Assembly: GCA_022071975.1 (NCBI GenBank) | Contig: JAJVIO010000019.1 | Location: 64,570-128,569 of the forward strand | Direction: 5' to 3' | DNA length: 64,000 nt | Origin: Planctomycetota bacterium | Lineage (GTDB): Bacteria > Planctomycetota > UBA8742 > UBA2392 | Part shown: positions 983 through 49,926 of the stretch, piece after piece | Position numbering within the stretch: the stretch's first letter is position 1 | How the letters are laid out: each line of letters opens with the position of its first letter | Translations under genes and position numbers: made by a program | The notes under the pieces: model-generated | What the model was told of the DNA's origin: nothing | The model's input: the letters and a program-made list of their open reading frames with translations, nothing else | Databases searched by the model: none

Positions 983-2229
983 CGGACCCCGGCGTGGTCT
1001 TCAAAGACGTGTGGAAGCGGCTCCCCCGCCGCACGGAAGTTTCGACGCTCGCCGAGTTGCTGTACGCGCTTCCGAAACGGGCGCTGCAGCGGCGCGACGA
1101 AGACGGCCTGCTTCCTCATGAATTCTGGGCCTTGCGCAACCTTTCCTTCGAGCTGCAGCCCGGAGAGTCCCTGGGCATCATCGGCCCCAATGGCGCCGGC
1201 AAGAGCAGCATTCTCAAGCTGATCTTCCGGATCTTTCGGGCGGACCGCGGCGCCGTGCGGGCAAAAGGCCGCGTGACGGGGCTCATTGAGCTCGGCGCCG
1301 GCTTCCACCCCATGCTGAGCGGTCGCGAGAATGTGTTCATCAACGGCTCGATCCTTGGCATGCGCCAGAAAGAAATCCGGCGCAAGTACGACAGCATCGT
1401 CGAGTTCGCTGAACTGGGCGAGTTCATGGACATGCCGGTCAAGAACTTCAGCAGTGGAATGCACGCGCGCCTGGCCTTCGCGATCGCCGCGCACGCCGAC
1501 CCGGACGTGCTGCTGGTTGACGAGGTGCTGGCGGTGGGCGACGCTTCTTTCCAGAACCGCTGCTACGAGTGGATCGAGAACCGTCGGCGCAAAGGCTGCA
1601 GCATCGTGATCGTCACGCACCAGTTGCACGTGGTGCAGTCCGCCACACGCTGCCTCTACCTGAGTGAGGGCAGGCAGGTGATGCTGGATGAGCCGGCGCC
1701 CGTAATCGACCGCTACCTGCGCGACCAGGCCGAACTCCTGGAACGCGCCGACGCGCAGCCGGCGGCCAGCCCCGGCATTACCCAGGTGCAACTGCTGGAC
1801 CGGCATGAGCGTCCCGTGCACGAAGTCGAGGCCGGCGCGCCCGTCACCCTGCGCGTTCACTGGAAGTTTCCTGAGCCCGTGATCGGCCCAGTGGTCACGC
1901 TGGACCTCTTTCATGATGACCCGCGATTCCTGATCTCGACACCGGGCGGCAACCTGGCCCAGCTCTCCAGCGGCGATTCACTCGCGACAGAAGTTGCCCA
2001 GGGCAGCGGGGCATTCGATGTACGTGTCGACGGGATGCACCTTCCCGTCGGCATGTATTGTGTGCGCGCGGCCGTGAAGGCGCACGGAGCGCTTACCGCC
2101 GCCATGCGCCGCGATGACGCGTTGCGTTTCGAGGTGCGGCGCCCGGCCGGCAGCGAGTCCCACGCGTTGATCGAGCTGGCCCAGAGCTGGAGCGTGGTCT
2201 CGCCGACGGAGTCGATCGAGAAACGATGA
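979..2229 (+). CDS. ABC transporter ATP-binding protein (Wzt/TagH type) with C-terminal extension
   Basis: Walker A GPNGAGKS, signature FSSGM, Walker B LLVDE. An extra C-terminal domain of ~170 aa resembles Wzt carbohydrate-binding modules. Confidence 0.85.
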   Translation: MTDPGVVFKDVWKRLPRRTEVSTLAELLYALPKRALQRRDEDGLLPHEFWALRNLSFELQPGESLGIIGPNGAGKSSILKLIFRIFRADRGAVRAKGRVTGLIELGAGFHPMLSGRENVFINGSILGMRQKEIRRKYDSIVEFAELGEFMDMPVKNFSSGMHARLAFAIAAHADPDVLLVDEVLAVGDASFQNRCYEWIENRRRKGCSIVIVTHQLHVVQSATRCLYLSEGRQVMLDEPAPVIDRYLRDQAELLERADAQPAASPGITQVQLLDRHERPVHEVEAGAPVTLRVHWKFPEPVIGPVVTLDLFHDDPRFLISTPGGNLAQLSSGDSLATEVAQGSGAFDVRVDGMHLPVGMYCVRAAVKAHGALTAAMRRDDALRFEVRRPAGSESHALIELAQSWSVVSPTESIEKR

Positions 2230-4001
2230 ACGACGTTTCCGACAGCAGCGAACGGCCGGCGCGCCTGCTCGTGATCGCGGCCGCGGCGCACAACCCCGGT
2301 GGGGTGTTCGGTGCTGTCGAGGTTCGAGGAGCCGGCGACGCCGACCAGGCGGCCCGTGCGGACTGCATCCGCGCCGACGCGGCAGGCGCTGAGGCGGCAA
2401 TCGGGCTGGGCAGGAAGTGGGGCGTCCCCGTGGTGCTGTTGGCCGACGCTGATCCGCAGTTTCTGAAGGAAGCGTCCTGCGTGCTCGCAGCCAGTGAATC
2501 CGCGGCAGCGAACTGTATCGAAGCCGGCGCCGATCCGGCCCGCGTGGTAACGATGCCGCCGGCCGTGGACCGAAGTCTGTTCACGCCGGAAGGCGAGGCC
2601 GCGGCCGGACCGCAGGGGAGGCCGCGTCTGCTGAGTTTGGAGCACGACAACCTGGATCGCGCGCTGCAGGCCAGCGCGCTGGCGACCGCCCGCCTGCCCG
2701 ATCTAAGGCTTGTGCAGATTGGCGGTGACAAGCCATTGCCAGCCTTCGCCGAGCGGCGCGAAGGACTGCACGAAAACGAGTTGCCCGCCTGGTTTCGCTG
2801 GGCCGACGCACTTCTGCTGCCTGCACGTTCGGATGGGCCGGTTGATGCGCTCGCGCGGGCGCTGGCCTGCGGGACGCCGTGCATTACTTCGAACAGGCCG
2901 CCGATGAATGAGGTTGTCACGGATCAGTGGGACGGCCTGCTGGTCGACCCCGAGAGCGCCGATGAAATTGCGCAAGCCATCCGCGGTGTTGCAGACCCGG
3001 CTGTTCAGGCGCGGTTGGCGGCCCCGGCACGGACCTCAAGCGAGAGTTTCGATTCCACGGCGGTGCAGGCGCGGGAAGCCGCACTGTACCGCTGGCTGCT
3101 TGGCCGACAGCGACCGATGATCAGCGTCGTGCTGCCTACCTATAACCGCGCCCGGCTGGTTGAGGCGGCCGTGCGCAACGTGCTGTCGCAGGATTACTCG
3201 AACCTCGAGTTGATCGTCGTCAATGACGGAAGCACCGACGCGACAGCCGAAATCCTGCGAAAGCTGTCAACGGACCTGAATGACTCGCGGCTTCGCGTTG
3301 TGAGCCGCGAAAATGGAGGTCTGCCAACCGCACTGAACACTGGCTTCGCAGCCGCAACGGGCGATTATTGGACCTGGACCAGCGACGACAACGCTTATCG
3401 GCCGGGGGCATTGTCCGCTCTGGCCCGTGAACTGATGCTCGATGCGACCATCGGCCTGGTTTATGCAGACATGTTGATCCGCGACGAAGCGGGCGTTCAA
3501 CGGCGCTTCGTCGCCGGGCCGCCCGAGCGACTTGAGGAAGGAAGTTGTGTGGGAGGCTGTTTCCTGTACCGCGCGGAGCTGGCGCGGCAGGTCGGCAAGT
3601 ATGATCCCGGCTACACGCTGGCTGAAGACTATGATTACTGGCTGCGCATGCATCGCATCGCGCGCTTCGCCTGGCTGCACCGGCTGCTGTATGACTATGC
3701 CGATGCGCCGCACAGCCTGACGCGCCGGAGATTTCGAGAAATGCAGGCCGTGCAGATGAAACTGTTTGAGCGCGAACAGGGCGGACGCGCCGACTGGCGC
3801 CAGCGAAAGTTTGAGCACCTGCTGCGGCACGCGTCGGCCGCCAAGAATCACGGCCTGCCTGGTGCTGCGATGTCCGCGGCCTGGGCCGCGATCCGCCAGC
3901 AACCCTCGGTCGCGCGCGGCTGGTGGGCGCTGCTGCGGGCGCTGACGCCGATGCCGCTTCTGAACCTGTCGCGCAGAATGCGGGGACTCGATGCCGGTTG
4001 A
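2226..4001 (+). CDS. Two-domain glycosyltransferase (GT4-like C-terminal half + GT2)
   Basis: The N-terminal half carries the GT1/GT4 donor-binding region (..ADALLLPARSDGPVDALARALACGTPCITSN..). The second half starts ISVVLPTYNR..IVVNDGSTD..WTSDDN, a GT2 signature. Confidence 0.75.
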   Translation: MNDVSDSSERPARLLVIAAAAHNPGGVFGAVEVRGAGDADQAARADCIRADAAGAEAAIGLGRKWGVPVVLLADADPQFLKEASCVLAASESAAANCIEAGADPARVVTMPPAVDRSLFTPEGEAAAGPQGRPRLLSLEHDNLDRALQASALATARLPDLRLVQIGGDKPLPAFAERREGLHENELPAWFRWADALLLPARSDGPVDALARALACGTPCITSNRPPMNEVVTDQWDGLLVDPESADEIAQAIRGVADPAVQARLAAPARTSSESFDSTAVQAREAALYRWLLGRQRPMISVVLPTYNRARLVEAAVRNVLSQDYSNLELIVVNDGSTDATAEILRKLSTDLNDSRLRVVSRENGGLPTALNTGFAAATGDYWTWTSDDNAYRPGALSALARELMLDATIGLVYADMLIRDEAGVQRRFVAGPPERLEEGSCVGGCFLYRAELARQVGKYDPGYTLAEDYDYWLRMHRIARFAWLHRLLYDYADAPHSLTRRRFREMQAVQMKLFEREQGGRADWRQRKFEHLLRHASAAKNHGLPGAAMSAAWAAIRQQPSVARGWWALLRALTPMPLLNLSRRMRGLDAG

Positions 4002-5091
4002 TGTCTCCGTCGTGGTCGGCACGCGGCCGGAAGCGATCAAGTGCGCGCCGGTGGTACTCGCATTGCGCGAACGCGGACTGAGCGTGCGGCTGGTTGCCAG
4101 CGGCCAGCATGCCGAGCTGCTGGATGACGCGCTGGCGGCGTTCGGCCTGGTGGCGGACGTCAACCTGCACGCCATGGTCGCGACACCCGACCTGTCCGCC
4201 CTGACCGCCCGGTTGCTCGAGCGCCTGGGCGGCGAGTTGCGCGTGAATCCGCCGCGCATGGTGCTTGTGCAAGGCGACGCTACAACCTGTCTGTCCGCCG
4301 CCATGGCGGCTTTCTACATGCACCTGCCCTGCGGCCACGTTGAAGCCGGCCTTCGCAGCGGAAACCTGGCCGCGCCGTGGCCCGAGGAGATGAACCGCCT
4401 GCTTGCCGATCGCCTCTGCACGCGACACTACGCGCCGACGCCCGGGGCGCGCGATGCCCTGTTGCGTGAGGGCTACTCGCCGGACTCGATCATCGTCACG
4501 GGCCAGACCGGCGTGGACGCCGCCTTGTGGATGGCAGACCGACTGGGAGACGCCCCACCCGAGGTGCTATGTGGAGTGAAAGGCCGCGTGGTGTTCGTGA
4601 CTGCCCACCGGCGCGAGAACCTCGGCGGCGGAATCGAGGCAATCTTGCGCGGCGTGGTTGCAGCGCTGGATGGGCACCCGGACTGCGCGGCCGTGCTGGC
4701 TTCGCATCCCAACCCTGACGTGCGTCGCGAAGTCGAGCGCGTGCGGCATCCGCGACTGCTGGTCTGCGATCCGCTGGAGTACGCGGATTCGATCTGGATG
4801 CTGAAGCACGCCGCCGTGATCGTAAGCGACAGCGGCGGCATCCAGGAGGAAGCGCCTTCCTTCGGCACGCCTGTGCTGGTGGCGCGTGACGTGACGGAGC
4901 GCCCGGAAGGCTTGCAGGCAGGCTTCCTCCGGCTGGTTGGCTCTGACGAGCGCCGGGTTGCGAGTGCGTTGGATGAAGTGCTTGCTGATTCGGGGCTGCG
5001 CGAACGCCTGAAGGGAACGCCCAACCCTTATGGCGACGGCCACGCCGCCGAACGCATCGCTGCTGACGTCGCGGGATTGCTGAAATCGTGA
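3991..5091 (+). CDS. wecB: UDP-N-acetylglucosamine 2-epimerase
   Basis: VVVGTRPEAIKCAPV.., HVEAGLRS, ..SDSGGIQEEAPSFGTPVLV.. are hallmark WecB/MnaA motifs. 366 aa. Confidence 0.85.
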   Translation: MPVDVSVVVGTRPEAIKCAPVVLALRERGLSVRLVASGQHAELLDDALAAFGLVADVNLHAMVATPDLSALTARLLERLGGELRVNPPRMVLVQGDATTCLSAAMAAFYMHLPCGHVEAGLRSGNLAAPWPEEMNRLLADRLCTRHYAPTPGARDALLREGYSPDSIIVTGQTGVDAALWMADRLGDAPPEVLCGVKGRVVFVTAHRRENLGGGIEAILRGVVAALDGHPDCAAVLASHPNPDVRREVERVRHPRLLVCDPLEYADSIWMLKHAAVIVSDSGGIQEEAPSFGTPVLVARDVTERPEGLQAGFLRLVGSDERRVASALDEVLADSGLRERLKGTPNPYGDGHAAERIAADVAGLLKS

Positions 5092-17795: not shown

Positions 17796-18221
17796 TCAAG
17801 ATTCCGTTACGGCGTGCTGCGTCACTTCGACGTCGATCACGACTTCCGGCTCGTCTTTCAGGGGCCGGCCGCGGGCGATCCAGTCGTCGGCGCGCGTCAG
17901 GAAGGGCTTGATCAATGGGCCGATGATGGTGAGGGCGGCGGTGATCACGGCAGCGTCGTCCAGCAGACCGGTCAGCGGCACCATGTCGGGGATGGCATCA
18001 AGGGGCGAAACGAAATACAGGATCGCCAGCACCGCCGTGGCTTTGACTCCCAGGTTCACCCTGGGATCGCGGATCAGGTAGTACAGAGCGGTTGCCTGTC
18101 GGGCGAAGGGCACGCGCCCGGCGAACTGGCGCATTTTCTTCCAGAAGGCGGCCTTGGCGCGCTGGATGTCCTCGGCGCTGACGCCTTCCTTGAAAACGCT
18201 GCTGTAGTCGCGCTCTGCCAT
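17796..18221 (-). CDS. YkvA/DUF1232 family membrane protein
   Basis: ..LAILYFVSPLDAIPDMVPLTGLLDDAAVI.. is the DUF1232 core. Confidence 0.7.
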   Translation of the reverse strand: MAERDYSSVFKEGVSAEDIQRAKAAFWKKMRQFAGRVPFARQATALYYLIRDPRVNLGVKATAVLAILYFVSPLDAIPDMVPLTGLLDDAAVITAALTIIGPLIKPFLTRADDWIARGRPLKDEPEVVIDVEVTQHAVTES

Positions 18222-41844: not shown

Positions 41845-42006
41845 GAGCCTGTCTGGATACCCAGAGTGAGACTGATTCGGAGCGCCGGGCGAGTGATGCG
41901 AGGCGCCCGACTGAGGCGTAGCCGCTGCTACGCCGCAGGGAGGGCAACGAAGCAGCGCGAAGCCCGCCGCCCGAATCAGACCGCGAGTGGGTTTCCAGAC
42001 AGGCTC
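41845..42006. mobile_element. MITE-like structured element (about 160 bp) between convergent stop codons
   Basis: Terminal inverted repeats AGCCTGTCTGGA..TCCAGACAGGCT plus inner CTGATTCGG..CCGAATCAG. Nested hairpin GGCGTAGC-cgct-GCTACGCC. Flanked by CTAAG on both sides. Confidence 0.55.
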
Positions 42007-42533
42007 TAAGGCTTGAACACACTTACACTGCAGACGTTGTCAAATGGCAGGCCGGCCGTGCGGTTGGCTGTGCGCACGGATTCGGCGTCCGGCGCCGCGT
42101 AGAGGCACAGCATGCGCTTGCGGTCCTTCGCGAAATAGCTGCGCAGGAACTTCACGCGGTGCTGCTGCAGGCACCAGGCGAAGGCGTCTTCCTGGGCCTG
42201 CACGTCGTCGAACGCAACCGGCTGCTTCCAGCTGCGTGTCACAAGTACCAGCTCACCGGATTCAGGCTGAACCAGGTCGGGCTCCGGCCCGTGCATCGTG
42301 GCGCTGTACACATGGCTGAAGGGCGCGTCGCCGTTGCGATTGGCGGTGCGCACGGATTCAGCGTCAGGTGCGCGGAACACGCAATCCAGCCGGTGACCAT
42401 CACGGGACAGGTAGGCGCGAACGTGTTCCACGCGATAGATGTCCGCGCAGCCCCGCAGCCGCGCGCGCAGGGCCCGGATGTCGTCAAAGTTTACTGCCTG
42501 CGGCAGTTCGCGCTCGACGATGACCCACTCCAT
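42006..42533 (-). CDS. Tandem DUF4242 (SCO4226-like, putative nickel-binding) protein
   Basis: Two repeats: ..RVEHVRAYLSRDGHRLDCVFRAPDAESVRTANRNGDAPF.. and ..RVKFLRSYFAKDRKRMLCLYAAPDAESVRTANRTAGLPF.. ATG overlaps the regulator's TGA. Confidence 0.65.
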   Translation of the reverse strand: MEWVIVERELPQAVNFDDIRALRARLRGCADIYRVEHVRAYLSRDGHRLDCVFRAPDAESVRTANRNGDAPFSHVYSATMHGPEPDLVQPESGELVLVTRSWKQPVAFDDVQAQEDAFAWCLQQHRVKFLRSYFAKDRKRMLCLYAAPDAESVRTANRTAGLPFDNVCSVSVFKP

Positions 42534-45500
42534 CAGCGACTCCTCCCCGCGCCGGCCACGGCTTCAACCATTTCTTTGACCTTGCGCGCCAGCCGCTCGG
42601 CGGGGAGCTTTCCCAGCGCGGCAACCTGCTGCTTTGCCGCCCGCGTATCACCGTTTGCCTCCGCGGCCTGCAGCAGCAGCAGCCTGGCGGCGGCGGCATC
42701 TGTGGGGCGCTGCAGCAGCTCGGCCAGCCGCAATGCTTCCGTGGCGCGTGCCGCCGCATGCCCGGTGCGGGCCTGCCGCAGGTCCAGCGCGGCCATTTGA
42801 AGAAGCGCGTGCAGCAGGTGCTGCTTGGCGTCTACCTCGCGCAGCTGCGCGACGTCGCGCTCAAACTCGGATTGCGTGTCCTTCCCCGCAGCCTGGCGCG
42901 CGACATCCAGCATCACCGCGGCGCAAGGCGCCTCGCTGCCGCCGCGCAGCTTCTGGCCGATCTCAAGCAACTCCTCGGCCAGCGGCAGCGCGGCGTCGGT
43001 ATTGCCGCGTTCGAGCTCGAGCAACAGCCGGTGATCCAGCACCTGGAACTCGGAAACCCGGTCGCCGCGCGCCCGCGCCAGCGACTGCGCGCGTTCGAAC
43101 AGGCCGGCGGCTTCTTCCACTTTCCCCTCGTGCAGTCGCAGCATGCCGGCCGCGTGCAGCATGCCCGCGGATTCCACGCCGCTGCGGCGCGCCATGGCGT
43201 TGGCTTCCAGCAGCAGGGCCTCGGCCTGGCCGAGGTCGCGCTCGAGCATGGCGAGACAGCGGGCGGCCTCGGCCATGGCGAGCGCGCGCTGCTCGGGGCC
43301 GGCGTCGCGGCTGGCGACCTCGGCACGCATCATCTGGCGCTGGGCGTCGCCCCATTCGCCCCCCTCCCAGCGCAGCCAGGCGGCCATGTGGAATCCGAGC
43401 CGCGCGTGCTCAAGGCAGCCGAGGTCCAGGGCGTGCTCGGCCAGCTGCTGCAGCTCGACGGCGACCTGGCCCAGCTTCTCGGGCTTGCGGGCGCCCAGCT
43501 GTACCTCATGCAGTTCCAGCATCAGGCGGGTACGCTGTGGGTCATCGAGCTTTGCGGCGAAAGCCATGCCGCGGCGCGCGAATCCGTCGGCCTCGCTGCC
43601 CGCGAACAGGCGCAGGCAGCGGCGACCGGCCGCCACGCAGCTTTCGGCGGCCAGCTTGAACTCACCGGCCTGCGAGGCGTGGTGGGCGACGTCGGCGGCG
43701 ATGCGCCCGTCCGGGTCTTCGCGCGCCGCCAGCAGTTGCGCGACTTTCAGGTGCATCAAGCGGCGGCGCGGGCCGGACAGCTCGTCATAGATGGCGCGGC
43801 GGGTGATCTCGTGGGGGAATGCGAACGCGCCCAGCGGCGTGCGGGCGTCGGCCACGCTCTGCATCAGGGCGTGGCGCTCGAGCGTTTCCAGGGACTCGAC
43901 CAGCGGCTCGGGTTCAAGTTTCGCGAGTTCGCCCAGCAGCTCGGCGGGCGCGTAGCAGCCCACCACCGAGCCCCAGCGCAGCACATCGAGGGCGTTTGCC
44001 GGCAAGGTTTCCGTGCGCTCCCGGATCGCGTCGGTGATCGAAGCGGGCAGTGACTCACGGCCGCCCGCACCTCGCGCGAGCTCAAGCGCAAACAGCGGGT
44101 TGCCGCCGCTGTCCCGGATGATGGCGTCTACGTCCGCCCCGGGCGCGACCGCGCGGACAAGCCTGCCCGCTTCGGCCTCCGGCAGAGGCGACAGTTCACG
44201 CTCGGCCAGCAGCCCGTCGCGATTCAGCTGGCGCACGAGGCGCAGAGCGGCATCGTTGTCCGGCAACTCGCCGGGTCGGGTCGCAAGCAGCAGCAGCAGC
44301 GGACGGTGCCGGTTGGTACGCAGGGCGTAATGCAGCAGCTCTGCGCTGGCGGCATCCAGCCACTGCACGTCATCCAGCATCAGCACCACAGGCGGCGCTG
44401 AGTGCGCGCGGGCGGCAATCAGCTCGCTGATCGCTCCGTACAGCTGCTCCCGGCTGCCGGACTGTTGGCCGGCGGCGCCCAGAAGCGGCGCGAGCTCGCG
44501 TCCGAGCTGGGCGCCGATGGCGTGTTTCGAGACGCGGCCGAGGGCGTCGATCCAAGGGCCATAGGGGCGCTGCTGCTCGATTTCAAAGCAGCGCCCGGCC
44601 AGCACGGTGGCGCCGGACTTTGACAGCCGGTGGCCGATCTCGTCCATCAGCCTCGACTTGCCGATGCCGGGCGGCCCTGACAGCAACAGGCCGTGGGCGC
44701 GCCGCTTTTCGCGCGTCGATTCGGCAAGCAAGCTGATCTCCTGCAGTTCCGCGTCACGCCCGAACAGCGGGGCGCGGATTGCGGTGGCCGTGTCAGTGCG
44801 CCTGTCAGGCGTGACCGGCGCGGGCTGGACCGGCGCCTGCAACGCCTGAAGCAGCTCGGGCACTGGCTGTTCGCCCAGCTCACCCAGCAGCCGCCTGGCA
44901 GATTCGAACTGGGTTTGTGCCTCTCGTTGCCGGCCGGCCGCGACCAGCAACCGCACCAGTTGCGCCTGGGCCGACTGGTTGAGGGGATCAACCTGTGCCA
45001 GCCGCCGCGCGAGGTGCAAAGCGCTTTCCGGGTCGGATTTGCGCCGCACGCCCTCAGCCAGCAGGCGCGCGTGGGCGCGGCGGGCGGTTTCCCGCTGGCT
45101 GGAGACCCAGCTGTGGAAGTCAGTAAACTCGGTAAGTTCCAGACCTTCCAGGAATTCGCCGCGCACCTGGGCCAGCAGTTCTTCCAGCTCCGCGTCGGTA
45201 AGCTCCTCAGGCTTGGCTGCGCACAACTCAGTCAGGTCGATGCGCGCGCCCGAAGCCTCGAACGTCACTTCTTCCCGCGTGGCTTTGAGGCGCTCGACAT
45301 CGTCGTTCACCAGCGGGCGCAGCTTTGACAGGCACCAGCGCAGGGCGCCGCGCGGGTCGTCGGCCACGTCCCAGAACATGCCGCATAGACGATCGCGCCG
45401 CTGAGGTTTGGCCGTCACGGCCAGGTAGGCCAACAGTGCGCGGGTCTTCTTGGACTGCGGCAATTCAACGGGCAAGCCGTTGCGCAGCACGCGCACTTCG

Positions 45501-45535
45501 CCAAGTAGCCCGATTTGCAGTCCAGCGCCGCCCAT
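42533..45535 (-). CDS. SARP/AfsR-type regulator: OmpR-like wHTH + BTAD + P-loop (AAA/STAND) ATPase + TPR region
   Basis: ..LLGEVRVLRNGLPVELPQSKKTRALLAYLAV..RDRLCGMFW.. (wHTH), a BTAD helical segment, Walker A LLSGPPGIGKSRL, Walker B VVLMLDDVQW, and a long helical-repeat C-terminus. An alternative GTG start is at 45601. Confidence 0.75.
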   Translation of the reverse strand: MGGAGLQIGLLGEVRVLRNGLPVELPQSKKTRALLAYLAVTAKPQRRDRLCGMFWDVADDPRGALRWCLSKLRPLVNDDVERLKATREEVTFEASGARIDLTELCAAKPEELTDAELEELLAQVRGEFLEGLELTEFTDFHSWVSSQRETARRAHARLLAEGVRRKSDPESALHLARRLAQVDPLNQSAQAQLVRLLVAAGRQREAQTQFESARRLLGELGEQPVPELLQALQAPVQPAPVTPDRRTDTATAIRAPLFGRDAELQEISLLAESTREKRRAHGLLLSGPPGIGKSRLMDEIGHRLSKSGATVLAGRCFEIEQQRPYGPWIDALGRVSKHAIGAQLGRELAPLLGAAGQQSGSREQLYGAISELIAARAHSAPPVVLMLDDVQWLDAASAELLHYALRTNRHRPLLLLLATRPGELPDNDAALRLVRQLNRDGLLAERELSPLPEAEAGRLVRAVAPGADVDAIIRDSGGNPLFALELARGAGGRESLPASITDAIRERTETLPANALDVLRWGSVVGCYAPAELLGELAKLEPEPLVESLETLERHALMQSVADARTPLGAFAFPHEITRRAIYDELSGPRRRLMHLKVAQLLAAREDPDGRIAADVAHHASQAGEFKLAAESCVAAGRRCLRLFAGSEADGFARRGMAFAAKLDDPQRTRLMLELHEVQLGARKPEKLGQVAVELQQLAEHALDLGCLEHARLGFHMAAWLRWEGGEWGDAQRQMMRAEVASRDAGPEQRALAMAEAARCLAMLERDLGQAEALLLEANAMARRSGVESAGMLHAAGMLRLHEGKVEEAAGLFERAQSLARARGDRVSEFQVLDHRLLLELERGNTDAALPLAEELLEIGQKLRGGSEAPCAAVMLDVARQAAGKDTQSEFERDVAQLREVDAKQHLLHALLQMAALDLRQARTGHAAARATEALRLAELLQRPTDAAAARLLLLQAAEANGDTRAAKQQVAALGKLPAERLARKVKEMVEAVAGAGRSR

Positions 45536-45691
45536 CGCGTCCAATTTCACTGTTTTCACACGAATCGGGGCCAAAAACTTTCGGAATTCTTGTCTTACCA
45601 CGTTGGCTCAAACGCTTCTTCATACGGTCGCACCCTACTTTTCTCCCGTGGGCGGATGGGCCGCCCGAGCAAAAGACACGGGAGAAACACA

Positions 45692-46609
45692 ATGACAACC
45701 GCAACGAAGTTCAGCTTCGAAGACGCCCTGGCCGCCTCGCAGAAGGTCAACTGGAAGATTGAAGACATCATCGGCGGCAACAGGCGCCTCGACTTCAGCC
45801 GCTCGTTCCTGCCCGAAGGCCTGGCGCGCACGGAAGAGCTGGCGTTCCTGGATGCCGACGAGCGCCGGGTGCTGAGCCAGATCCGCGGCCACGCCTACCT
45901 CAACATCTTCGGCCTGGTCGAGGAGTTCATCCTTCCCTTCGTGCTTGACCACGCGCGTCCCAGCCTGGCCGGCGACGACTACCGCACACGCGCCCTGCTG
46001 CAGTTCGCCGGCGAAGAGGCCAAGCACATCCACCTGTTCAAGACCTTCGCCGAGGAGTTCCGCAAGGGCTTCGGCCACGAGTGCCAGATGATCGGCCCGC
46101 CCCAGGCCATCGCCCGCGAGGTACTGAGCCACCATCCGCTCGGCGTCGCGCTGGTGATCCTGCACATCGAGTGGATGACCCAGCGGCACTTCATCGAGGC
46201 CATTACCGGCGACCTCGAGATCGACCCGCAGTTCAAGAGCCTGCTGCGCCATCACTGGATGGAGGAGGCCCAGCACGCGAAGCTCGACACGCTCATGGTG
46301 GAAGCCATCGCCGACTCCTGCACGCCAGGCGAGATCGAGCACGGCGTGGACGAGTACCTGGCGATCGGCGGCTTCATTGACGAAGGCCTCAAGGCCCAGA
46401 CCCGGTTCGACCTGGAAGCCTTCGAGCGCGCCACCGGACGCGTACTCAATGTGGAGGAGCGCGAAGAGTTCCTGCGCGTGCAGCACCAGGCCAACCGCTG
46501 GACCTACCTCGGGACCGGCATGTCGCACCCCGAGTTCCTGAAAACCGTGGGCTCGCTCAGCGACGTGCAGCGCGCCCGCCTTGAACAAGTCGCGCCGGCG
46601 TTCTGCTAG
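45692..46609 (+). CDS. Ferritin-like diiron oxygenase (AurF/PF11583-like)
   Basis: Paired E..H motifs: ..FAGEEAKHIHLF.., ..HIEWMTQRHF.., ..HHWMEEAQHAKLD... 305 aa. Start ATG 45692 follows GGGAGAAAC. Confidence 0.55.
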   Translation: MTTATKFSFEDALAASQKVNWKIEDIIGGNRRLDFSRSFLPEGLARTEELAFLDADERRVLSQIRGHAYLNIFGLVEEFILPFVLDHARPSLAGDDYRTRALLQFAGEEAKHIHLFKTFAEEFRKGFGHECQMIGPPQAIAREVLSHHPLGVALVILHIEWMTQRHFIEAITGDLEIDPQFKSLLRHHWMEEAQHAKLDTLMVEAIADSCTPGEIEHGVDEYLAIGGFIDEGLKAQTRFDLEAFERATGRVLNVEEREEFLRVQHQANRWTYLGTGMSHPEFLKTVGSLSDVQRARLEQVAPAFC

Positions 46610-46616
46610 CGCCTGA

Positions 46617-46642
46617 GGGGCCCCGCCGTGGGGCGGGGCCCC
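46617..46642 (+). repeat. Perfect 11-bp GC-only hairpin (GGGGCCCCGCC-gtgg-GGCGGGGCCCC) in the intercistronic spacer
   Basis: Read directly. No U-tract follows. Confidence 0.7.
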
Positions 46643-46662
46643 GCACTTCCCCGGAGACTGCC

Positions 46663-47046
46663 ATGTCCAACGTGTTCGCACCGCCCGTTGACCTGCGCCC
46701 CGACGCCGAAATCCTGGCCGCGCTGGTGGATGAAACCTACACGGAGTTGGCCCGTGCCCCATACGCGGGTTTCCACTTCAACACGGGCGCGAGCTACGCC
46801 CTGGAGCGGCTGGGCTACGACGCCGGCGAGTTGCTGGCGCTGCCCGTGGAAAGCACCTCGCGCTTCGCCGGCCTGGGCAACCCGCTGGCAGAAGCCTATC
46901 TGCAGCCCGGCGAAGTGCTGCCCGATTCCGTCTGCGGCGCGCGGGCGGTCCGCCGCTTCGATTCGTTCTCCGGCACGGTTTCCGGCCGGCGCATTCCCCG
47001 CAAGTACAACCTGCACGCGGCCAACATCGTGGCCTGGCGCGCCTGA
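46663..47046 (+). CDS. Truncated paralogue of the downstream methyltransferase (N-terminal ~90 aa only)
   Basis: Aligns with 47060..: V.ETYT..A..P...FHF..G..YA...LGYD..EL..LP...T.RFAGLGNPLA......PGE. Similarity is lost at the SAM GxGxG motif (..PDSVCGARAV..). Confidence 0.45.
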   Translation: MSNVFAPPVDLRPDAEILAALVDETYTELARAPYAGFHFNTGASYALERLGYDAGELLALPVESTSRFAGLGNPLAEAYLQPGEVLPDSVCGARAVRRFDSFSGTVSGRRIPRKYNLHAANIVAWRA

Positions 47047-47059
47047 CCTGGAGAGAGCC

Positions 47060-47845
47060 ATGAACGAAGCATGCATCGTCACCCCCAACCGCGACTACCT
47101 GAAGAACATCGTGCGCGAGACTTACACGGCCGTCGCGGACGACCCTGCCACTGAGTTCCACTTTCATGTCGGGCTGGAGTACGCCGTGCGGCTGCTCGGT
47201 TACGACCGCGCCGAGCTGGAGTCACTGCCGGAGATCGCCACCTTGCGCTTTGCCGGGCTTGGCAACCCGCTGGCGATCGGGCCGATCCACCCGGGCGAAA
47301 CCGTGGTGGACCTGGGCAGCGGCGCGGGCACGGACCTGCTGCTGGCCGCGCGACGCGTGGGCCGGCTCGGACGCGTCATCGGTGTCGACCCGACGCCCGC
47401 CATGCGGAGCACCGCCTGGCAGGCCGCGTGCGAAGCCGGCCTCGCGGAGCAGGTCTGGATGCTGGAGGGCGAGGTGGAGTCGATCCCGCTGACGGACGGC
47501 GTCGCCGACGTGGTGATCAGCAACGGCGTGTTGAACCTGGGCGTGGACAAGGCCCGGGTGTTCCGCGAGATCGCCCGCGTACTGAAGCCCGGCGGGCGCG
47601 CCTACCTGGCCGACGCCGTGATCGACCGCCCATTCGGCCCCGCCACGCTGAGCGACCCGGCCCTGTGGGCTTCCTGAGTGGCAGGCGCTCTGCCGGTGGC
47701 AGAGCTGCACAGCCTGATGGAACAGGCCGGGCTGAAAGACGCGCGGGTCACCGCCGAGTTCAAGAGTTTCCAGGGCACCAGCTCCGAGCTACAGGTGGCC
47801 CCGCACATGAGGCTGCGCGCCGCCAACTTCACGGCGCGCAGGTAG
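47060..47845 (+). CDS. ArsM-like SAM-dependent methyltransferase with in-frame TGA (47675-47677) at the conserved C-terminal Cys position; candidate selenoprotein, or a truncated gene ending at 47677
   Basis: ..VVDLGSGAGTDLL.. (SAM motif I), ..DVVISNGVLNL.., ..LKPGGRAYLAD.., then ..DPALWAS[TGA]VAGALPVAELHSLMEQAGLKDARV.., which matches the ArsM/AS3MT ..LW/Y-x-x-C-x-x-GA.. block. The frame stays open to TAG 47843-47845. Confidence 0.6.
47681..47708 (+). promoter_or_regulatory. Candidate bacterial SECIS stem-loop
   Basis: GCA-ggc-GCTCTGCC-GGU-GGCAGAGC-UGC: an 8-bp upper stem, a 3-bp lower stem, and apical loop GGU starting 18 nt after the UGA. Confidence 0.45.
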
Positions 47846-47859
47846 CGTGGCGCACCGGG

Positions 47860-47890
47860 CAGGGACAGGCACCCGTCGTGCCTGTCCCTG
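47860..47890. terminator. Bidirectional terminator hairpin between convergent genes
   Basis: Perfect 13-bp stem CAGGGACAGGCAC-ccgtc-GTGCCTGTCCCTG. Confidence 0.6.
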
Positions 47891-47901
47891 ACGGCAGCGG
47901 A

Positions 47902-48897
47902 CTAAGCCATAGGCGCGTTGTTCAGCAGGCTCAATTCGGTGTTAAGCGCGCCGATGTGGTAGTGGATGTCGCTGATCCCGAAACCGGGTAGCCTTGCCAC
48001 GTGGGTGTCCACGTAGGTGCGCGCCTGGGCCGCCGTTTCGAACAGGTACACGCCGGAGGCACGACCGGCGTCACGGTCTTCACTCCAGAACTTCCAGCGC
48101 AGGCCCGGCAACTCGTTCAGGCTTTCGGCCAGCATGCGGTAGGTCGCGGTCATCTCGCGCCCCCAGGGTCCCGGGTAGGCGAAGTCGATCTGCAGCAGGG
48201 CGGGGGCGCAGCAGTCCGGGTCCACGCCCAGGGCCTTGGCCAGCGCCAGCCATTGGGCGGGCGGCAGTGCGCGGTGGGCCGCATGCAGCAGCTGCTCATA
48301 CAACGGGCGCGGCAGCTTGGCGCTTGCCCCGCGAAGCAGGGCCTCGCGCTCGGCGGCCGTGGCGGCGGGCAGAATCTCGGCCACGAAGGCTACCAGTACA
48401 TCCGGTTTCAGGCCGGCCATCACGCGGCCTTCCATGGCGCGCAGTTCGGCGTCGCTGAAGTGCTCGTGGAACAGGGGCAGCAATCGCTCTTCCTCGCGCG
48501 CCATGTGGTCGAGTTGATCGGCCATGAAGTAACCGAACTCGAGGTACAGGCGCCGGCCCGGTTCGTCGCGCTCAGGGGCGCAGGTGACCTCTTCGGCCAG
48601 CTGCCGCAGTCCGCGGGTGGCTGCGGCCAGGCCGGCGTGCTCCTGCCCAAAAGTGCCCAAAACTTCGGGCCGTGCCTGCGTCAGCGCGGCGTGGGTGGTG
48701 GTCTCCTCGGCGGCTGCGTGGGCATCGCTGAGCTGCAGCACGCTTTCCAGCCCGGCCAAAGCGGCGCGGGCGGACTTGGCGTCCTGCCATTCGGCAGCGC
48801 CCAGGGTTGCCAGCACGCGGCCGAAGGCGCGGCGCAGTGCCTTGTGGGGCAGGTTGTAGATGTCAACTCGGGTCGGGGTCAGCATGGCGGTGGTCAT
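47902..48897 (-). CDS. Hemerythrin-like domain fused to a YdhR-type (ABM-fold) putative monooxygenase domain
   Basis: The N-terminal half has His/Glu-rich helices (..LPHKALRRAF.., ..DQLDHMAREEERLLPLFHEHF..). The C-terminal ..LLQIDFAYPGPWGREM..LNELPGLRWKFWSEDRDAGRASGVYLFETAAQARTYV.. parallels E. coli YdhR. RBS AGGAG precedes ATG 48897. Confidence 0.65.
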   Translation of the reverse strand: MTTAMLTPTRVDIYNLPHKALRRAFGRVLATLGAAEWQDAKSARAALAGLESVLQLSDAHAAAEETTTHAALTQARPEVLGTFGQEHAGLAAATRGLRQLAEEVTCAPERDEPGRRLYLEFGYFMADQLDHMAREEERLLPLFHEHFSDAELRAMEGRVMAGLKPDVLVAFVAEILPAATAAEREALLRGASAKLPRPLYEQLLHAAHRALPPAQWLALAKALGVDPDCCAPALLQIDFAYPGPWGREMTATYRMLAESLNELPGLRWKFWSEDRDAGRASGVYLFETAAQARTYVDTHVARLPGFGISDIHYHIGALNTELSLLNNAPMA

Positions 48898-48990: not shown

Positions 48991-49926
48991 ATGCAGCATG
49001 TGAATATTGAATCCGCCAACCTGAACCTGATGGTGGTGCTGGACGCACTGCTTGAATCCCGCAGCGTCACCCGCGCCGCCGAGCACCTGGGGCTCACCCA
49101 GCCGGCCGTCAGCCACGCCTTGGCGCGTCTGCGCGAACTGCTGCGTGACCCTTTGCTGGTCCGCGGGCGCGGCGGGCTGGTGCCGACGCCGCGCGCGCAG
49201 GCGCTGGCCGCGCCGTTGCGCCAGGGGTTGAACCAGCTCGAGCAGGTGCTGCGGCACGAGGGGGGCTTCGACCCCGCCAGCAGCGCGCGCCGCTTCAGCA
49301 TCGCCACCGTGGACTACCCGCACCTGACCGGCCTGCGCAGCCTGCTGGCCCGCCTGCAGCGCGAGGCGCCGGGCGTCAGCGTGGAAAGCCAGATGATCGG
49401 CCCGCGCCTGGCGGAGCAGCTGGAAAGCGGCGAGCTGGATGTCGCCCTGGCGGGCGTGGAAGTCGAGGCGATTCTGGCGTCAACTCCGGGCATGCAGTCG
49501 CGGCTGATCGTCAGCGAAGACCTGATGTGTATTGCGCGCAAAGACAATCCGCTGCTGCGGCGCGGCCTTGACCTGGAGACCTACCTGCGACTCGGCCACG
49601 TTACAGTGATGGCGGAAGGCGGTGCTTGCGACCAGCACGTGGATCTCAGTCTGCGGCGCATGAAGAAGTCGCGCCGCATTGCCGCCGCGGTGCCGCATTT
49701 CATCGCCGCGCCTTTGTTGGTGGCAGAAAGCGACTACATCAGCACCCTGCCGCGCGCACTGGTGGAGTACGTCTGCACGTTGTTGCCGCTGAAGATGCAC
49801 ACGCCACCGCTCAAGCTGCCGCGGGGAGAAGCGTACTTGTGGTGGCACGCGCGCTTTGACAACGATCCTGCGCACAGATGGTGGCGCGAACAACTGATGC
49901 AAGCATTCTCCCCATACAGGGGATGA
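48991..49926 (+). CDS. LysR-family transcriptional regulator
   Basis: ..LNLMVVLDALLESRSVTRAAEHLGLTQPAVSHALARLRE.. is the HTH, followed by a substrate-binding domain. 311 aa. Confidence 0.85.
   Translation: MQHVNIESANLNLMVVLDALLESRSVTRAAEHLGLTQPAVSHALARLRELLRDPLLVRGRGGLVPTPRAQALAAPLRQGLNQLEQVLRHEGGFDPASSARRFSIATVDYPHLTGLRSLLARLQREAPGVSVESQMIGPRLAEQLESGELDVALAGVEVEAILASTPGMQSRLIVSEDLMCIARKDNPLLRRGLDLETYLRLGHVTVMAEGGACDQHVDLSLRRMKKSRRIAAAVPHFIAAPLLVAESDYISTLPRALVEYVCTLLPLKMHTPPLKLPRGEAYLWWHARFDNDPAHRWWREQLMQAFSPYRG

Follow-up and report, generated by a model that had tools for sequence, protein, structure and literature searches.

Among S-adenosylmethionine (SAM) methyltransferases, the arsenite-methylating ArsM enzymes are expected to have at least three of four conserved cysteines, Cys44, Cys72, Cys174 and Cys224 in CmArsM (PMC5552862). 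An 'arsenite methyltransferase' selenoprotein (PRK11873/NF008823), with one selenocysteine (Sec) in a UxxG motif, has already been catalogued (PMC13188914 Table 1; PMC2398784). The catalogue by Zhang and colleagues credits it to Fomenko et al. 2007 (PMC13188914), and also lists three ArsM-domain fusion selenoproteins with a UxxG motif (PMC13188914), which are curated as NCBIfam models. Here we describe a gene of this kind in a 64,000-nt stretch of DNA from a Planctomycetota bacterium (assembly GCA_022071975.1, contig JAJVIO010000019.1, forward-strand positions 64,570-128,569), which we refer to as the window and number from its first nucleotide. From comparison of its sequence with those of its relatives, we consider it very probable (roughly 90%) that UGA codon 206 of this gene is translated as Sec, giving a 261-residue SAM methyltransferase of the ArsM/AS3MT superfamily. 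The features of the gene are:

47050-47055, + strand: Shine-Dalgarno-like GGAGAG, 4 nt 5' of the ATG, seen directly in the sequence.
47060-47845, + strand: coding sequence of the ArsM-like SAM methyltransferase as putatively recoded, with Sec206 among its 261 codons and a closing TAG.
47675-47677, + strand: in-frame UGA, predicted to encode Sec at residue 206 from alignment to ArsM chains in the PDB and from column counts.
47678-47842, + strand: C-terminal extension of 55 codons, translated only if the UGA is recoded and homologous to the C-terminus of the Cys forms.
47687-47705, + strand: predicted core of a bacterial selenocysteine insertion sequence (SECIS), an 8-bp stem with a GGU loop at 47695-47697, 17 nt past the UGA.

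Translation from the ATG at 47060, a start that agrees with homologues opening M-x-x-x-C, gives 205 codons up to the TGA at 47675-47677, followed in the same frame by 55 codons that read VAGALPVAELHSLMEQAGLKDARVTAEFKSFQGTSSELQVAPHMRLRAANFTARR (VAGALPVAEL...ANFTARR) as far as the TAG at 47843-47845. The local protein reading around residue 206 is ..SDPALWAS-U-VAGALPVAELHSLMEQAGLK. This continuation, and the normal G+C bias at its third codon positions (GC3), had been pointed out in the initial annotation of the window, and both were seen again here, with a GC3 in the methyltransferase frame of 0.95 before the TGA and 0.87 after it. When both strands of the window were scanned for TGA codons flanked by coding-type composition, only this TGA and one other site were found. 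At the other site, TGA 17796-17798 on the reverse strand, a 141-amino-acid (aa) gene ends directly before a 371-aa gene in the same frame, which looks like two adjacent genes rather than a recoding site. Since TGA is the most frequent ordinary stop codon among the genes of the window, the genome is not using an altered code.

The protein matches class I SAM methyltransferase domains in Pfam (Methyltransf_31, E = 5.9e-23; Methyltransf_11; Methyltransf_25). Its top NCBIfam match was PRK11873/NF008823, arsenite methyltransferase, at 202.6 bits, which does not reach the cut-off of 263; the next matches were three curated ArsM-domain selenoprotein families, all far under their cut-offs, and the window protein scores under every curated NCBIfam cut-off. 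A phmmer search of the PDB returned the ArsM structures 5evj, 4kw7 and 4fr0 (E = 8e-27 to 5e-25). It can be seen from this alignment that the column of the TGA is that of the Cys in the ..L[YL]GEC[LG]xGAL block of the ArsM crystal structures, whose versions of this third arsenic-binding Cys block are ECLGGAL and ECLAGAL. We take the same column to be that of Cys206 in human AS3MT. In CmArsM the arsenic-binding Cys that aligns with the TGA has the residue number 224 (PMC5552862). Read as Sec, the codon would give the motif U206-V-A-G209, that is, UxxG.

The remaining ArsM cysteines have no counterparts in the window protein. Where ArsM has FYGCGS (Cys72) it has FAGLGN, with Leu67 at the position of the Cys, and where ArsM has SNCVCNL (Cys174) it has SNGVLNL, with Gly156; before residue 206 its only cysteines are Cys5 and Cys124, and none lies near the position of Cys44. 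A protein search gave thousands of relatives and a one-genome-per-species scan a further 80 loci, and 85 loci were scored in all. FAG[VL]GNP together with SNGV was present in 85 of the 85 scored family members, in Sec and Cys forms alike, and the whole family is therefore without equivalents of Cys72 and Cys174. One Cys/Sec is invariant in the family, and most members have in addition a Cys near the N-terminus, which is Cys5 in the window protein. Thus only the Cys224 column is kept of the four, in the window protein as Sec206, and the same holds across the 85 members, which is short of the three expected of an ArsM. The initial annotation had placed the TGA at the Cys position of an ArsM/AS3MT block, and the phmmer alignment agrees; it had also noted the absence of the other two ArsM cysteines (GLGNP for GCGNP, SNGVLNL for SNCVxNL), which proves to be true of every scored member. 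Its view that the enzyme is probably not a canonical arsenite methyltransferase is right, given the cysteines that are missing here and throughout the scored family.

Full-length relatives with Cys at this position are about 261-283 aa long, align with the window protein end to end and have LWAAC[IV]xGAL where the TGA falls. The initial annotation had proposed aligning homologues for Cys or Sec at the TGA position, and the alignment contains both: the column codon is TGC or TGT at 52 of the scored loci and TGA at 33. The TGA loci come from Planctomycetota, Binatia, Polyangiales, Betaproteobacteria, Acidobacteriota, Chloroflexota, Actinomycetota, Gemmatimonadota, Dormiibacterota and Spirochaetaceae, and wherever enough of the contig is available beyond the TGA, an intact in-frame homologous tail is present. 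Five relatives (P0001, P0002, P0006, P0007 and P0050) have been called as proteins of 205-208 aa that end exactly in ..LWA[SHY]. We compared the DNA of these five independent lineages, which is from one contig of a Planctomycetes metagenome-assembled genome (MAG; 3.09 Mb) and four other metagenome sources. They stand at 62-96% protein identity, and each has TGA at the column followed by 55-56 in-frame homologous codons with the same end. Differences in the tail, summed over the ten lineage pairs, number 165, 172 and 292 at the first, second and third codon positions, an excess at the third, and no insertions or deletions occur in the tail across the Sec lineages. Relative to L008 the tail has 13 synonymous and 6 non-synonymous codon changes, and relative to L003 it has 4 and 2. 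The closest named relative, Planctomycetota MAG JACKIE010000011.1, shows 93% protein and 87-89% DNA identity. The codon that follows the TGA is GTG in the clade of the window, GTA in L006 and ATC or ATT in the other Sec clades.

Some genomes carry additional copies. An Acidobacteria MAG (L082, 2245-2301 and approximately 1500-3100, both on the reverse strand) has a Sec-type paralogue, ..DLWTG-U-IAGALLEAEL, which scores 63.5 bits with the covariance model described below; beside it, on the opposite strand, lies a Cys-type relative that is more distant, so that a single genome can hold both versions. L069 (approximately 3950-4850), from the genome that also contains L017, is a second copy in which an in-frame stop precedes the active-site block and the Cys/Sec column is Tyr, and is probably a decayed paralogue. 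The Cys-type gene of Burkholderiaceae bacterium 16 (L070, approximately 3900-4740) has a frameshift, reflecting an assembly error or a pseudogene.

Directly downstream of the TGA, the arms 47687-47694 (GCTCTGCC) and 47698-47705 (GGCAGAGC) form a perfect 8-bp hairpin around the loop GGT. The predicted energy of this upper stem-loop is -13.4 kcal/mol, and that of its 65-nt context -30.8 kcal/mol. The published bSECIS model asks for a loop of 3-9 nt with at least one G among its first two nucleotides and a stem of 4-16 bp (PMC13188914), with a spacing of 16-37 nt from UGA to loop and an energy of -7.5 kcal/mol or lower (PMC13188914). All of these constraints are satisfied by the hairpin (loop of 3 nt, stem of 8 bp, G-G-U, 17 nt, -13.4 kcal/mol), as the initial annotation had supposed from its geometry. 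That annotation described the stem-loop as extending over 47681-47708. Its 8-bp upper stem is perfect and found throughout the family, whereas the 3-bp lower stem is particular to the window and is not conserved in homologues, and we have dropped it as a part of the SECIS. At the window's own base rate, the 16-37 nt interval is expected to contain only 0.0055 perfect stems that are 8 bp or longer, enclose 3-9 nt and have a G as first or second loop nucleotide; that the hairpin goes beyond chance is settled by the comparative data.

We found the hairpin at all 33 TGA loci, with its loop 16-17 nt past the UGA and a mean energy of -10.8 kcal/mol, while none of the 52 Cys loci has a comparable hairpin at the same site, the best model-compliant hairpins there averaging -2.4 kcal/mol (Mann-Whitney p = 1.4e-13 for the difference in energy). 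The initial annotation had asked whether Sec-containing homologues keep the hairpin, and they clearly do. Stems in homologues include GCUCUGCC-GGA-GGCAGAGC, CUGCU/AGCAG, CUGCA/UGCAG and CCCUGC-CGUGC-GCAGGG, the last with a 5-nt loop, and the apical loops are GGA, GGU, GUC or CGUGC. In an alignment of 31 distinct sequences, 91.9% of the cells of the 8-bp stem are paired, a share that drops to 29-50% if one arm is shifted by 1-3 columns, and compensatory changes occur at two stem pairs (UA to CG or GC; CG to UA or AU). Codon usage under the stem also differs between the two forms. Sec forms use GCT for Ala+4 in 19 of 31 sequences, CTG for Leu+5 in 31 of 31 and GCA for Ala at position +8 in 30 of 31; Cys forms use GCG for Ala+4 in 35 of 52 and never have Ala at position +8. 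The maintenance of the stem through rare synonymous codons (Ala GCU, Ala GCA) shows selection on the RNA. We also considered whether the peptide GALPEAEL by itself accounts for the hairpin, and rejected this: Cys forms with the same peptide (L011 and L071) use other codons and have no hairpin. A covariance model built from the alignment scores the Sec loci at 47-70 bits, the window at 59.8 bits and the Cys loci at no more than 30 bits, and it recovered in addition two Sec-type paralogues from outside the training set. Taken together, the position of the UGA at a Cys column and the joint conservation of UGA, frame and hairpin across phyla therefore support the reading of this codon as Sec.

The CCCUGC-CGUGC-GCAGGG variant of the SECIS, with its 5-nt loop, is found in L072, L077, L078, L080, L081 and L083-L087, which are the Sec forms of Chloroflexota, Actinomycetota, Gemmatimonadota and Dormiibacterota. 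Proteins of this clade lack the N-terminal Cys and have instead a Cys seven residues past the Sec (U-IAGALP-C), a residue that may, judging from its position, be an alternative partner for Sec.

Several observations weigh against translation of the codon as Sec. No selA, selB, selD or tRNA-Sec was found in the 64-kb window or in the fetched loci. ARAGORN reported neither a tRNA nor a tRNA-Sec in the window, a Pfam search of ten window proteins of a size compatible with SelA, SelB or SelD found none of the three, and tblastn with approximate E. coli SelA, SelB and SelD probes gave no matches in the window or in any of the loci, which is a weak negative. A stretch of 64 kb without sel genes says little about the rest of a genome, and some Planctomycetes are documented to carry the complete set of genes for Sec insertion (PMC4807772). 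The Sec-type loci all derive from MAGs or metagenomic contigs, so that the evidence is at the level of DNA only, and the GTG directly after the UGA in the clade of the window would in principle permit re-initiation. The fold of the 65-nt context is unexceptional for its G+C-rich composition (z = -1.33; 15 of 200 shuffled sequences were as stable). No Rfam family matched the hairpin, with only chance-level matches when the whole window was searched at the gathering threshold and 47560-47920 at E<=10, and this too counts against a SECIS, though Rfam may hold no model for such an element. Finally, the proposals on function made below, for the substrate and for the role of Cys5, are based on homology and gene neighbourhood only.

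If the TGA were a true stop, the gene would encode a truncated methyltransferase of 205 residues and the 55 codons beyond it would be either untranslated or, in a split gene, re-initiated at the GTG. This is the form that gene callers annotate in the five relatives ending in ..LWA[SHY], and in L005 a 56-aa open reading frame (ORF) has been called directly after the TGA; in the window clade the next codon is GTG. However, the GTA of L006 and the ATC or ATT of the other Sec clades are not normal start codons and the tail is conserved regardless, and therefore re-initiation does not explain its conservation. Nor does a split gene predict that the break should fall exactly at the catalytic Cys column at 33 loci from many phyla, always together with a TGA-specific hairpin, and truncation would deprive the protein of its conserved active-site residue and of C-terminal strands that every Cys form has. 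We regard termination at this codon as very unlikely. Much the same low probability attaches to read-through of the UGA with an amino acid other than Sec, whether by near-cognate insertion of Trp or Cys, by a suppressor tRNA, or by Cys carried on tRNA(Sec) at low selenium. Some selenoproteins are known to receive Cys at their Sec codons when selenium is limiting, and the homologous position is Cys in most relatives of the window protein; against this, TGA is the normal stop of most window genes, so there is no general suppression.

The other way in which a TGA could have come to stand at this column is by a recent inactivating change of TGC or TGT, which would make the gene a pseudogene, or by an error of sequencing or assembly; the initial annotation had likewise offered a point-mutated Cys as its alternative. 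A single base change would suffice, and gene decay does happen at this locus, where the neighbouring 127-aa ORF is a decayed paralogue (see below). Yet the same TGA occurs in independent assemblies at the 62-96% protein identity given above, and at 33 loci overall; the tail has stayed in frame, with synonymous changes outnumbering non-synonymous ones against both L008 and L003; and a structure specific to TGA forms has been preserved through rare synonymous codons. The conservation of the TGA and of the tail across lineages therefore excludes sequencing error and recent inactivating mutation for practical purposes, and the probability that we would still give to either is negligible. We conclude that decoding of UGA as Sec is the best account of this gene, and we infer both that Sec is inserted and that selA, selB, selC and selD are encoded in another part of the genome.

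On decoding as Sec, the mRNA hairpin that begins 10 nt past the UGA, with its 8-bp stem and GGU loop, would serve as a bacterial SECIS. SelB-GTP with Sec-tRNA(Sec) would bind this hairpin and bring Sec to a ribosome that has the UGA in its A site, out-competing release factor 2, and translation would then run on to the TAG at 47843. By homology, Sec206 would replace the substrate-binding Cys (CmArsM Cys224) that faces the methyl group of SAM. As the sole retained arsenic-binding position, it is probably the one soft ligand or nucleophile by which the methyl acceptor is held, and the conserved N-terminal Cys5 may cooperate with it. We speculate that the methyl acceptor is probably something other than inorganic arsenite.

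Around the methyltransferase gene we noted the following features:

45692-46609, + strand: AurF-like (di-iron, ferritin-like) gene, with a weak Pfam AurF match (26 bits, cut-off 29.6).
46663-47046, + strand: 127-aa ORF, apparent remnant of a tandem methyltransferase paralogue, from NCBIfam matches to residues ~14-93 only and from tblastn.
47860-47890, no strand assigned: perfect 13-bp hairpin with a 5-nt loop (arms 47860-47872 and 47878-47890), between convergent genes and past the TAG.

An AurF-like homologue adjoins the methyltransferase in 35 of 87 loci, mostly immediately upstream, and these include the window and its clade; the AurF-like protein of the window had no NCBIfam match and no PDB sequence match at E<=1. 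A relative of 323 aa (P0009) consists of a Cys-type methyltransferase fused to the C-terminal ~60 residues of the AurF-like family (..NRWTFLGSGMTHPRF...APAFC), and may be a true fusion or else an artefact of gene calling at a locus with a downstream AurF-like gene.

Between the AurF-like gene and the methyltransferase, the 127-aa ORF has retained ~93 aa from the N-terminus and ~35 aa from the C-terminus of this methyltransferase family, and has neither the SAM-binding core nor a Sec codon or SECIS. Its tail matches that of a Sec-type paralogue that stands intact upstream in L006, with a TGA and a SECIS of its own, and the closest relatives, L003 and L008, do not have the ~395-bp segment that contains the ORF. 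It looks, from these matches, like what an internal deletion has left of a second methyltransferase paralogue in tandem. Recent duplication of the adjacent gene was considered as its origin and rejected, as the N-terminal identity is only ~51% and the tail matches a different paralogue.

The initial annotation had called the 13-bp stem at 47860-47890 a terminator that follows the second stop codon. The stem is real, and when its arms are widened to 22 nt (47851-47872 and 47878-47899) they show 82% complementarity; it has no U tract, and a promoter and terminator scan of 45400-48400, which flagged nothing, did not mark it as an intrinsic terminator. It is possibly a terminator without a U tract. 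The convergent gene beyond it (47902-48897, reverse strand) codes for a protein in which a hemerythrin HHE cation-binding domain is fused to a YdhR-type putative mono-oxygenase domain, and is followed by a divergent gene for a LysR-family regulator ending at 49926. On the other side, a gene for a two-domain SCO4226-like (nickel-responsive) protein (42006-42563, reverse strand) and one for a 1022-aa AAA_16-type regulator (42533-45601, reverse strand) lie divergent from the AurF-like/methyltransferase pair; both are also present in L003, and in L007 a SCO4226-like gene precedes the AurF-like gene.

A gene for the methanethiol S-methyltransferase MddA (NF045656, 345 bits, cut-off 270) lies at 7948-8763 of L050, a few kb from a Cys-type methyltransferase, and MddA is also found near Cys-type methyltransferases in L016, L022, L023, L024, L034, L042, L043, L045 and L063. 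This proximity hints at a link to the methylation of volatile sulfur or selenium compounds. From the AurF-like, SCO4226-like and MddA context together, one might speculate that the substrate is a small chalcogen, metalloid or thiol-reactive compound. A more specific proposal, which we put forward tentatively and ourselves consider rather doubtful, is that the family is mislabelled as 'arsenite methyltransferase', that its substrate is not arsenic (sulfide, methanethiol, selenide or another thiol-reactive compound), that Sec acts as nucleophile or ligand, and that the repeated exchange of Cys and Sec over at least 10 phyla points to a rate-limiting residue. Identity of the family with MddH, the H2S/methanethiol methyltransferase, was also considered; the published description alone speaks against it, MddH being described as a UbiE-family protein (COG2226) for which the paper makes no ArsM-like link.

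These results bear on annotation in the first place. Public records of relatives mis-annotate the gene as a truncated 205-aa protein, and the same error affects at least 33 loci in many phyla; the family-specific SECIS covariance model separates Sec from Cys forms cleanly and can be used for annotation repair. As the family does not have the cysteines expected of an arsenite methyltransferase, counts of arsM in environmental surveys may overstate arsenic methylation. The Sec would, moreover, mark one active-site residue as indispensable to this ArsM-like family, and the existence of Cys-type orthologues in cultured strains, among them Lysobacter niastensis, Plasticicumulans lactativorans DSM 25287 and Thioalkalivibrio denitrificans ALJD, makes its substrate accessible to experiment.

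It remains to set the window gene beside the systems already described. With canonical ArsM and AS3MT (CmArsM, PDB 4fr0/4fs8; Chlamydomonas ArsM, 5evj; human AS3MT) the protein shares the fold, the SAM-binding motifs, the third-Cys block and an N-terminal region, FHFHxG..Y...LGY..ELxxLP...RFxGxGNP. It differs from them in keeping one of the four conserved cysteines, as the predicted Sec, with Leu67 for Cys72 and Gly156 for Cys174, and in having no extra C-terminal domain, its 261 aa comparing with 377-387 aa in the ArsM chains of the PDB. The curated fusion selenoproteins NF041537 (ArsM/AhpD), NF041536 (ArsM/DUF2284) and NF047649 (methyltransferase/UXPK-star) align with it over residues ~8-240 at 155-187 bits, but these scores are far under the cut-offs of 460-575, and the window protein is without a second domain and has one Sec. 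Like the SECIS elements of the E. coli fdhF/fdnG type and the bSECIS model, the window element is a stem-loop within the coding sequence past the UGA, with a small loop that begins with G, at 17 nt. Its sequence, however, is unrelated to those of the E. coli elements, it is a predicted target of SelB, and its conserved part consists of only a 7-8 bp stem and a 3-nt loop (5-nt in one clade), with no conserved lower stem.

The closest resemblance is to the catalogued PRK11873-type selenoprotein, with which the window protein has in common that it is an ArsM-superfamily SAM methyltransferase with one Sec in a UxxG motif (U-V-A-G in the window), that Sec is paired with Cys in homologues, and that a bacterial SECIS lies directly past the UGA. 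In contrast, it falls under the NF008823 cut-off (202.6 against 263 bits) and is without equivalents of Cys72 and Cys174; the catalogued representative, WP_011987699.1, is likened to it here by the description in the catalogue only, and not by its cysteines. The NCBI record of the nearest named relative (P0002) is that of a truncated 205-aa 'methyltransferase domain-containing protein', and this branch has therefore not been annotated as a selenoprotein. We conclude that the window gene is a previously unannotated member of an already known selenoprotein type.

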